Source: a virus
Lineage: Duplodnaviria; Heunggongvirae; Uroviricota; Caudoviricetes
Reading direction: 5' to 3' (one strand)
DNA length: 9,284 bases
IMG/VR virus record: IMGVR_UViG_2671180524_000015
Shown here: piece by piece, positions 288-4,762 of the stretch
How the letters are laid out: every line of letters starts with the position of its first letter
How positions within the stretch are numbered: the first letter of the stretch is position 1
Translations under genes and position numbers: made by a program
The notes under the pieces: model-generated
What the model saw: only the letters and a program-made list of their open reading frames with translations
The model's database searches: none
What the model was told of the DNA's origin: nothing

Positions 288-629
288 CGCAATGGCCACC
301 GCCACATCCAGCACATCTTCCGCTTCACGCGTATCGTGTTTCACATCCTCAATCTCGCGTAACGCGGCACGACGACCAATTTTAAAATTGGTATCCAGCT
401 GACCGATAATAGTTGCGCTAATCGCATTAATTTCCGAGGTAAACGCAGACAACGCAGGCTGATTACGTAAGACCTGTTCGATCTTCGCTTTCTCGGATGC
501 CTCGCATTCACCATCTGCATAGGCCACCAGGTATGCAGCGTTAATCACCGCCTGTGCCAGATCGCGTTTCTCAAACTTTTTAATTTCCGCTGCCGCTCTG
601 CGGGTTTTCTTTTTGAAGATTCCAAACAT
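288..629 (-). CDS. TerB-domain-like protein, 3' end lost in N-gap
   Basis: ATG at 629-627 with AAGGAA Shine-Dalgarno about 8 nt upstream. 114 codons read to the gap edge: MFGIFKKKTRRAAAEIKKFEKRDLAQAVINAAYLVAYADGECEASEKAKIEQVLRNQPALSAF...DVLDVAVAIA. The spacing of A.ADG..S..EK.KI and the second ..VA.A stretch matches my memory of the tellurite-resistance TerB domain fold pattern. Confidence 0.55.
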
Positions 630-761
630 CGTGACGTTCCTTTGGGTGGGTGAGCCAACGCCCGGGAGCGATCTGCCCACAGAGAAAGTCACACTGACCA
701 CTCCGTAAGCTCACCCCCGAAAGGCTCTGTGGTTGATATGCGCCGGGCGTGGCGCAGATAC

Positions 762-875: not shown

Positions 876-1095
876 AGAATACCGATAANNNNNNNNNNNN
901 NNNNNNNNNNNNNNNNNNNNNNNNNNNNNNNNNNNNNNTTGGGTGGGTGAGCCAACGCCCGGGAGCGATCTGCCCACAGAGAAAGTCACACTGACCACTC
1001 CATAAGCTCCCCCCGAAAGGCTCTGTGGTTGGTATGCGCCGGGCGTGGTGCGGATACAAAAAAGGTCCGCAAAAGCGAGCGAGGGAAAATAAGTG

Positions 1096-3956: not shown

Positions 3957-4235
3957 TTACCTCCAGATGCGTTGCTGGAATGTGCGGGACGGACGCGGTG
4001 GGCGTTCGGAGTAAGGAAGCCTGACGGAGATTATCCAGTGACGATAATCGAGACTGAGGGCTTTCTTAACCTCGTATCCGCGCCTGCGGTAACACTGAAT
4101 CAGCCATTCAGCCTGTTCTTCGGTGCAGGGGTCGTGCTGATACCAGTCAGATTTGAATGCATGAGAACGCCGCCCGTGCCTGCTGGCAGGGGCGGCAGAG
4201 TTATCCGAATTGTAAAATTTGGTATCGTGCGCCAT
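3957..4235 (-). CDS. Rem-like small prophage protein (by synteny), 92 aa
   Basis: ATG at 4235-4233, MAHDTKFYNSDNSAAPASRHGRR...QQRIWR. The longer ORF-track start (GTG 4364) is rejected because the terminator at 4306-4334 lies inside that extension. Sits between hokD and ydfU as rem does in Qin; sequence not recognised. Confidence 0.45.
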   Translation of the reverse strand: MAHDTKFYNSDNSAAPASRHGRRSHAFKSDWYQHDPCTEEQAEWLIQCYRRRGYEVKKALSLDYRHWIISVRLPYSERPPRPSRTFQQRIWR

Positions 4236-4305: not shown

Positions 4306-4334
4306 AGAAAAAACAAAACCCGCCGAAGCGGGTT
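4306..4334 (-). terminator. Intrinsic terminator between hok and the rem-like gene
   Basis: Minus strand AACCCGC-TTCG-GCGGGTT followed by TTGTTTTTT (7-bp stem, UUCG tetraloop). Confidence 0.6.
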
Positions 4335-4402
4335 AAGTGCGGGTGCGTTGAGGATGCCTGACACATCAGCGGTGGCGAGGGATTTCTCCCCCGCCTGGTC
4401 TC

Positions 4403-4545
4403 TTACTCCTCAGGTTCGTAAGCTGTGAAGACANNNNNNNNNNNNNNNNNNNNNNNNNNNNNNNNNNNNNNNNNNNNNNNNNNGTCACTATGACGGTTAA
4501 ACAGATGACGATCAGGGCGATTAACATCGCCTTTTGCTGCTTCAT
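4403..4545 (-). CDS. hokD: Hok-family type I toxin (HokD/RelF-like), interrupted by N-gap 4434-4483
   Basis: AAGGAG Shine-Dalgarno then ATG at 4545-4543. N-terminus MKQQKAMLIALIVICLTVIV; after the gap the frame ends ..VFTAYEPEE with TAA at 4405-4403. Both ends match my memory of the 51-aa HokD. Confidence 0.8.
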
Positions 4546-4666
4546 AACCTGCTTCTCCTTGCCTTTCGGCGCGTAAGAGGCTAACCTACGTTTGTGAAGC
4601 ATAGATTGGGCCTCAGATTAATGTTAAGCGTCTTGCAGGACGCGTAATGTTAACTGGGGCTTTTCT

Positions 4667-4702
4667 CTGTCTGCCTTACGGTGGCATGCCCGAGGCAGAC
4701 AG
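4667..4702. repeat. Perfect 10-bp inverted repeat with 16-bp spacer containing an 8-bp palindrome
   Basis: CTGTCTGCCT (4667-4676), spacer TACGGTGGCATGCCCG with GGCATGCC inside, AGGCAGACAG (4693-4702). Confidence 0.5.
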
Positions 4703-4762
4703 CCTCAAGCACCCGCAGCAATTCTACTTAACTCTCGCTTTACAGCAAACCGTTTTGCCCGA

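Follow-up and report, generated by a model that had tools for sequence, protein, structure and literature searches.

The Shiga toxin (Stx) genes stx2AB of phage 933W and prophage Sp5 occupy a slot that is bordered upstream by a tRNA promoter, the tRNA genes ileZ-argN-argO and a post-argO terminator, and downstream by a region with small RNA (sRNA), nanS-p (SASA esterase) and holin genes. A PR' 'moron CDS' (coding sequence) site with convergent sRNAs has been described in the Sakai prophages Sp3, 4, 9, 10, 11, 15 and 17 (Tree et al., PMC4104026), and a 2026 preprint names the TerB family (PF05099) among the conserved neighbours of PasA/PasC (bioRxiv 10.64898/2026.05.13.724894). The present locus resembles this AgvB/AsxR and Pas sRNA site in both points; however, these papers treat the sRNAs 3' of the cargo, and a 5' leader and the function of the TerB gene are considered in neither. 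The subject here is a 9,284-nucleotide (nt) stretch of Caudoviricetes DNA (IMG/VR virus record IMGVR_UViG_2671180524_000015), referred to below as the window, in which a TerB-family gene, tciA, lies in the slot of stxAB behind a leader that is predicted to fold onto its own ribosome-binding site (RBS).

Two further systems are close to the gene itself. Phage P1 carries tciA-tciB-tciC (PHROG 632, 1470), with TciA homologous over its full length and the DUF3927 gene tciB directly next to it, amid phage tRNA genes; the P1 genes are non-essential and uncharacterised (PMC10695390). In contrast to the present locus, P1 has no structured leader, carries a third small gene (tciC), and keeps its tci genes in the C1-controlled ban operon, not behind Q/pR'. 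The names tciA, tciB and tciC reportedly come from Lobocka et al. in 2004. TerB of the terZABCDEF operon (PF05099; 2JXU) shares with TciA the domain family, a helical fold and a duplicated ADG...E motif, but TciA stands without TerC, D, E and Z, pairs with a small hydrophobic protein and belongs to a phage late operon.

Phage leaders that sequester the Shine-Dalgarno (SD) sequence and are gated by processing or refolding include the lambda N leader with RNase III and the T7 RNase III sites, and RNA thermometers act in a similar manner. The tciA leader has in common with them an anti-SD:SD pairing at the base of a long imperfect helix. However, it has no sequence or Rfam relation to these leaders, contains an additional covarying crossing helix, and recurs in a cassette-like manner before many unrelated genes, each time just past a terminator.

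The new point of this locus is the leader and not the gene: an uncatalogued folded RNA pairing with its own RBS. TciA alone changes little, as an annotated, common and functionally blank phage accessory module. Comparative sequence analysis gives good support to the leader as a conserved structured RNA of a known general kind, and covariation shows a putative anti-SD, CCUUU, pairing with the AAAGG of the RBS in a predicted helix (P5) that stacks on two further helices, P2 and P3. These three nested helices make up a covariance model of 12 sequences, a search with which gave 61 matches in 63 sources; the crossing helix, P1, and another helix, P4, were added on the model alignment and are not part of the model. 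In the leader alignment 92.7% of the cells were paired, compared with 83.6% in shuffles and at most 49.5% with slid partners, and compensatory changes were present at 29 of the 35 leader pairs, compared with 11.9 in shuffles (0 of 500). The P5 helix was 100% paired, with compensatory changes at three of its five pairs. Furthermore, in an independent set of 73 distinct sequences the nested structure was 94.6% paired, with 15 of 22 pairs compensatory and slid controls at 52.5% or less; P5 was 98.4% paired in this second set. Divergent leader copies also carry compensatory changes. Helix P1, in which the 5' flank is paired with the apical loop, has, although outside the model, compensatory changes at six of eight pairs, occurs in at least 18 sequence versions, and forms a stem of at least 6 base pairs (bp) in 78% of the sequences compared with 13% of loop-shuffled controls. 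The mRNA strand is favoured because G-U cells exceed A-C cells in the leader alignment by 82 to 44, and the folding z-score is -2.4 for the sense and -0.9 for the antisense strand. In addition, the SD is sequestered in the minimum free energy (MFE) fold of six of seven diverse representatives. The preliminary description of this DNA had suggested that the leader was under constraint, which these two sequence sets support and extend.

Two other routes to a consensus structure were set aside. A plain MAFFT alignment of 30 leaders, analysed with RNAalifold, yielded no more than nine pairs because its variable apical part was misaligned, and was replaced by the covariance-model alignments; the single-sequence MFE of the E. 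coli allele is another fold than the covariation-supported one and was not adopted as the consensus. A hairpin between the terminator and the leader core (H0) is kept, with variant stems, in related loci; its conservation is by sequence and lies outside the covariation counts. Rfam 15 gave no match at E <= 1 to any leader copy of the window or in seven diverse loci. No description of the leader was found in the literature, where the supplementary motif lists of PMC8040213 were left uncompared by sequence. The preliminary description gave a leader of ~130 nt; argO and the ATG are in fact 169 nt apart, with about 130 nt of this interval lying past the terminator.

The leader is also found well beyond tciA. 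Diverged copies detected with nhmmer and the models lie 2-3 kb downstream, after the lysis genes, and each of them follows a terminator and stands ahead of an unrelated gene with its SD and ATG. Scanning IMG/VR with a pattern gave at least 120 further sites, before more than 25 different open reading frame (ORF) families. One model match lies immediately upstream of ant in the Stx2 phage 933W (NC_000924 26739-26856; locus L401 7240-7357), and two lie in a prophage of E. coli K-12 DH5alpha (locus L402 922-1037 and 2514-2614), where they precede a Rha-family regulator gene and a hypothetical gene. We take this prophage to be phi80. The leader may represent an uncatalogued and widespread class of phage cis-regulatory RNA, a tentative reading to which we give slightly less than an even chance. 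Such an RNA would be placed like a cassette after an intrinsic terminator and would gate the translation of unrelated accessory genes in read-through late transcripts; under the same tentative reading, its examples would include tciA, 933W ant, the Rha-family gene of the phi80 prophage, and KilA-N, HNH and glycosyltransferase-like genes. It would comprise an SD-sequestering three-helix hairpin with a covarying crossing helix, and gating could occur by a fold switch or by RNase III-type cleavage. The leader is a candidate for a new Rfam family, offers a concrete handle on how late-operon accessory genes are restrained, and occurs in tractable model phages (933W and, presumably, phi80 in DH5alpha/DH10B).

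The upstream arrangement reported in the preliminary description, with Q, pR'/tR' and ileZ-argN-argO ahead of the TerB-like gene, is fully present on the minus strand of the window (Table 1). The post-argO terminator forms the upstream border of the stx-equivalent slot, where Stx-phage homology ends; its counterpart carries the annotation 'terminator' in both 933W and VT2-Sakai, and in 933W it precedes stx2A. A consensus scan of the minus strand from 630 to 798 found no sigma-70-like promoter, weak or non-sigma-70 promoters being beyond its reach, and the -10 hexamer candidates in the leader lacked key bases on scanning and on inspection by eye. Because a terminator lies upstream and no sigma-70-like site precedes the ATG, the tciA transcript most likely arises by late Q-dependent read-through, as judged from position. 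The term 'moron' that had been applied to the gene implies, in the strict sense, a promoter of its own, and the lack of a promoter-like site in the leader leaves this unsupported for tciA.

The position of the module was examined by aligning a tciAB prophage of O157:H7 (locus L004) with 933W. Positions 3595-3930 of L004, comprising pT-ileZ-argN-argO-terminator, are 92% identical to 933W; homology stops past the post-argO terminator and picks up again 87 nt after stxB, continuing into nanS-p, holin and lysozyme. Between these flanks, 737 bp (leader, tciA and tciB) take the place of 1369 bp (the stx2 upstream region plus stx2AB), and the stx2AB cassette differs in its unrelated cargo and in a short upstream region of its own, from which the leader motif is absent. 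Because the flanks on both sides are shared by tciAB and stx2AB, the idea of a Stx-equivalent slot is correct, and on this alignment the tciAB module occupies the stxAB position of Stx phages. Records of Stx-converting phages match the first 48 nt of the leader region only, which is the terminator, and none of the leading organism names for the 130 TciA-relative records is that of a Stx-converting phage. The slot and the gene are both already known, and the slot reading is not new. The module shows that the site of the toxin genes in Stx phages takes cargo in general, and tciAB fills it in many enterohaemorrhagic E. coli (EHEC) prophages.

The scaffold piece at 288-888 reads, in minus-strand order, argO, intrinsic terminator, leader, RBS AAAGGAA (637-643) and the ATG at 629. 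Translation of the ORF 629->288 gives 114 residues that are 100% identical to RefSeq WP_000466957.1 (143 aa), and the tciA fragment, leader and argO together have 100% DNA identity with many closed genomes of Stx-producing E. coli (STEC). In closed genomes the gene has 143 codons, and hundreds of them carry it under the annotation 'tellurite resistance TerB family protein'. TerB-family membership, as proposed from the fragment, was borne out: full-length TciA matches Pfam TerB (PF05099) with 60.2 bits (E 2.9e-16) and the 114-aa fragment alone with 35.2 bits, both above the threshold of 24.4 bits. TciA also matches phrog_632 (E 1.7e-69, residues 1-143 of 143), and a profile of TciA relatives matches the solved TerB structure 2jxu_A over the whole domain (E 2.5e-14, residues 13-137). 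An AlphaFold2 model shows a six-helix bundle with a predicted local distance difference test (pLDDT) of 86.9, for which the best Foldseek match in the Protein Data Bank is the TerB-like 2h5n, with a template modelling (TM) score of 0.56-0.62 and an E-value of merely 0.019; the other matches have weak E-values. The duplicated ADG...E motif is invariant or nearly so at D39/G40/E46 and D117/G118/E124. NCBIfam offered no useful family for TciA, and a match to DjlA was rejected as it reflects the shared TerB domain only. The window ORF is, by homology, a TerB-family tciA related to that of phage P1 (42% identity over 143 aa, E 8e-24). With this P1 homologue, PHROG 632 and the existing annotation, its portrayal as unrecognised cargo was overstated; the observation of the preliminary description is confirmed, and its interpretation is partly supported and, overall, largely holds.

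That description missed the partner gene tciB. Lying beyond the N gap at 238-287, the partner is known from closed genomes and related loci, where the start of tciB overlaps the tciA stop by 4 nt. TciB belongs to DUF3927 (PF13064, 60.8 bits; phrog_1470 'TciB-like', E 7.9e-30) and is a small protein with two strongly hydrophobic segments, whereas TciA has none and is of soluble type. The tciB gene directly follows tciA in 80 of 80, 90 of 90 and 77 of 78 loci of three divergent lineages (247/248), and because of this adjacency tciA-tciB is taken as the unit. No third gene is annotated after tciB in loci L001, L002 (JLK-2012) and L004, although no search aimed at tciC was made. In a single viral contig, tciAB is closely followed by a match to the sRNA family STnc100 that exceeds the gathering score (L161 3631-3759).

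The tciA gene is carried by 784-790 of 5426 complete E. coli genomes (about 14%), and full-length TciA relatives occur in 130 phage records, both temperate and virulent. These include P1, P7, D6, lambdoid phages of E. coli and Klebsiella, N4-like phages, jumbo phages of Erwinia and Salmonella, and Vibrio and Pseudomonas phages. Where lambdoid phages have no tRNA genes, as in those of Klebsiella, 'Actinobacillus' and E. coli, tciAB is placed between Q and holin. The neighbours of tciA are tRNA genes, DUF3927, SASA esterase and holin genes; it is not part of a ter operon, and its TerB stands alone, with no TerZ, A, C, D or E beside it. In unrelated phages tciA also adjoins phage tRNA genes, namely Asn/Thr/Ile in P1, Asn-Thr-Gly in JLK-2012, Ile-Arg-Arg in lambdoid phages and tRNA-Cys in Erwinia jumbo phages.

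Taken as a whole, these results are best explained, with fair though not high probability, by a tciAB module that sits in the stx slot behind a structured leader, is expressed late and has a membrane-linked lytic role. Read on the minus strand, the window is the junction from the early-right to the late region of a lambdoid prophage, presumably a non-Stx one, and shows how its late operon begins. It contains DUF1627 and DUF968 genes as well as replication genes with kinship to DnaT and lambda P. The tciAB genes would be transcribed mainly when Q-modified polymerase passes the terminator after argO, and the stable leader fold would hide the SD and gate tciA translation. Release of the SD could follow from the competing P1 fold, which as an alternative structure would form first during transcription and leave the SD free, from RNase III-type cleavage of the helix, or from a further factor. 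The leader helix, of at least 22 bp, could plausibly be cut by RNase III in the manner of the lambda N leader. TciA and TciB may act jointly at the inner membrane during lytic growth, with protection or sensing of membrane integrity before holin-triggered lysis, or exclusion of other phages or colicins, as likely roles, and would give the lysogen no tellurite resistance. A membrane-associated lytic role is preferred to tellurite resistance of the lysogen because a soluble TerB protein is joined to a hydrophobic partner, the genes lie before the lysis region, and relatives occur in virulent phages. A function for TciA-TciB would fill a gap for a gene common to temperate, N4-like and jumbo phages, and a leader that gated the translation of cargo in the late operon would matter for the yield of cargo products upon EHEC prophage induction.

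Several points weigh against this explanation. The MFE fold of the E. coli allele differs from the covariation-supported fold (-58.4 and -54.7 kcal/mol, respectively, a gap of 3.7 kcal/mol). The nested helices were counted on model-fitted alignments, which lean towards the structure, and the relatedness of the leader sequences means that the shuffle controls cannot be read as probabilities. On simple geometry, helix P1 is incompatible with a straight P5-P2-P3 helix, because there is no linker between the P1 5' strand and the anti-SD; P1 would be either part of a bent pseudoknot or an alternative fold, as in a switch. Helix P4, which joins the apical loop to the SD-AUG spacer, is tentative and holds in the tciA subtype only. 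In addition, the leader is missing from the tciAB loci of phage P1 and of a lineage of 80 loci, some tciA copies look damaged (the A7 allele described below; IS66 and ISEc20 insertions), and tciABC of phage P1 proved dispensable for plaque formation in a CRISPR interference (CRISPRi) screen (PMC10695390).

The conservation of the leader could have another origin. Between E. coli-type and Klebsiella-type loci, identity is ~80-84% over the leader plus the opening ~70 nt of the coding sequence, yet only ~42% between the TciA proteins, which is the signature of a mosaic junction within the gene and would be expected if the leader were merely a recently exchanged joint, or recombination linker, that is not kept for its fold or for regulation. 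We regard this as improbable, since compensatory changes keep four helices down to the jumbo Erwinia phages and before unrelated genes, the anti-SD covaries with the SD, and pairing with slid partners falls to 52.5% or less. A different possibility is that the leader is kept for its fold but acts as a ligand or temperature switch (a riboswitch or RNA thermometer) and not as a processing or constitutive dampening element. Two conserved and mutually crossing pairings (P1 against P5-P2-P3), a conserved single-stranded YCUUUCRG with a second role as the anti-SD, and SD sequestration, the usual expression platform of riboswitches and thermometers, are all consistent with this. Nevertheless, a switch of this type is unlikely: more than 25 unrelated kinds of downstream gene are unlike the targets of a metabolite riboswitch, neither internal loops nor junctions showed conserved nucleotides of the kind that forms a ligand pocket, and Rfam holds no relative.

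For the genes themselves, no tested function of phage TerB/TciA was found in the literature. TerB homology, the name of the gene and the link of the ter operon to colicin and oxidative-stress resistance (cited in PMC7649339) would fit a lysogenic-conversion gene, expressed in the lysogen from a promoter of its own and providing tellurite or colicin resistance. There is little probability in this, given a lone TerB without TerZ, A, C, D or E neighbours, the lack of a promoter-like site from the terminator to the ATG, an SD that is sequestered in the predicted fold, and relatives in strictly virulent phages; the authors of the phage PMBT3 study likewise doubt the tellurite activity of a lone terB (PMC8421299). 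Alternatively, tciAB could be a superinfection-exclusion or anti-phage defence module, in which a TerB sensor and a membrane effector block incoming phages. Ter systems inhibit phages, superinfection exclusion was proposed by Iyer et al. for the stand-alone TerB of Erwinia jumbo phages (PMC7824862), and accessory genes occupy both the pR' slot and the region after the lysis genes (PMC4104026; pattern scan here). However, PADLOC-DB 2.0 gave for TciA only PDC-S48, at 14.5 bits over 35 residues, which is not a meaningful match, and none for TciB, and a late-operon place behind a terminator disfavours expression in the lysogen, where prophage defences usually act. A dedicated defence module is accordingly rated as unlikely, and it overlaps with the favoured late, membrane-linked role if exclusion is confined to lytic growth.

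Six runs of 50-52 N interrupt the window, which is a scaffold built from short contigs whose ends fall within repeated prophage sequence. Below position 1356 it consists of four short pieces that repeat argO, terminator, leader and the start of the TerB gene at 92-100% identity. The order of these pieces is no evidence of true adjacency, and the repeats are scaffold fragments, not a tandem array. They probably stem from different prophages and were juxtaposed by the assembler, because closed genomes have a single argO-leader-tciA unit per prophage and a median of four matching places per carrier genome. The three leader copies listed in the preliminary description are four pieces (182-237, 630-798, 939-1095 and 1270-1355), and what was given as a copy at 135-237 includes coding sequence of a second tciA allele at 135-181. 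The third copy has a covariance-model match at 924-1035 (80.9 bits), and the fourth belongs to the Q-bearing contig. One contig break falls at the poly-G run at 1270-1275 and another immediately before the SD (939). Copies differ in the length of the G-run that separates the anti-SD from P2, which ranges from 4 to 11 G (window 1010-1015 and 1270-1275; L004 ~3990-4000; L064), often together with a T-to-G change that gives a P2 mismatch; the run is a slippage-prone tract within the regulatory helix.

In the second tciA allele, the A7 run closes the ATG frame after 16 codons, and the RefSeq protein (WP_001303509.1, 142 aa) is given a TTG start that lies 4 nt downstream. This allele is 100% identical to many closed O157:H7 genomes and is therefore not a sequencing error of the draft; slippage losing one A from the run would restore the ATG frame. 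Elsewhere, ISEc20 (IS110 family) breaks the leader after nt 85 in PPompW prophages (e.g., LC567822.1 15631-15715), and an IS66-family element of ~2.5 kb lies exactly between leader/ATGTTTG and tciA (loci L047 and L054, 460-3000).

Table 1. Positions of the leader, tciA and surrounding features in the window.
Feature	Position	Strand	Evidence or remark
tciA (TerB-family) coding fragment, codons 1-114 of 143	629->288	minus	ends at N gap 238-287
Structured leader core, ~113 nt	627-739	minus	covariance-model match, 125.6 bits
Leader P1, 5' strand	725-732	minus	
Leader anti-SD CCTTT	720-724	minus	
Leader P2, 5' strand	709-716	minus	
Leader P3, 5' strand	696-704	minus	
Leader P4, 5' strand	688-692	minus	
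Leader P1, 3' strand	677-684	minus	
Leader P3, 3' strand	665-673	minus	
Leader P2, 3' strand	648-655	minus	
Leader SD AAAGGAA	637-643	minus	
Leader P4, 3' strand	631-635	minus	
ATG	629-627	minus	
Hairpin H0, TGCGCC-ACGCCC-GGCGCA	739-756	minus	between terminator and leader core; in MFE fold
Intrinsic terminator directly after argO	761-786 (hairpin 767-786)	minus	8-bp stem, CTTCGG loop region, T-run
Complete leader copy	630-798	minus	
Leader 3' end of second tciA allele, 55 nt	182-237	minus	100% identical to 630-684 region
Third leader copy, without SD end (N gap)	939-1095	minus	93.0% identical to complete leader
Fourth leader copy, 5' half, with terminator 1325-1342	1270-1355	minus	94.1% identity; breaks at poly-G
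Second tciA allele, 5' fragment	1-181	minus	A7 run
argO, tRNA-Arg (TCT), tciA-bearing piece	799-875	minus	ARAGORN; Rfam tRNA 67.3 bits
Further argO copy, upstream of third leader copy	1096-1172	minus	
argO (TCT), Q-bearing contig	1356-1432	minus	ARAGORN; homologous to 933W tRNA block
argN (TCG)	1446-1522	minus	ARAGORN; homologous to 933W tRNA block
ileZ (CAT)	1530-1605	minus	ARAGORN; homologous to 933W tRNA block
Promoter-like site TTGCAA-17-TATTAT upstream of ileZ	1615-1643	minus	promoter scan
tR'-like hairpin, then T7	1729-1752	minus	terminator scan; pR'-tR' region as a whole 1717-1832
pR'-like promoter	1832-1804	minus	promoter scan
Antiterminator Q gene	1816-2511	minus	Pfam Phage_antiter_Q PF06323, E 7e-92
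N runs	238-287, 889-938, 1220-1269, 2592-2641, 2842-2893, 4434-4483		

The annotated tRNA promoter pT of 933W lies in the region homologous to the promoter-like site upstream of ileZ. In the nin-like region, a hok/sok type I toxin-antitoxin locus is located at 4540-4714 on the minus strand (Rfam sok, 114.9 bits), and hokD is annotated at the corresponding place of related prophages. Weak matches resembling isrK/isrJ, sRNAs of Salmonella Gifsy, were obtained below the gathering score at 1727-1800 and 4313-4394 on the minus strand, the first of which (isrK-like) spans the region of the short pR'-tR' transcript.

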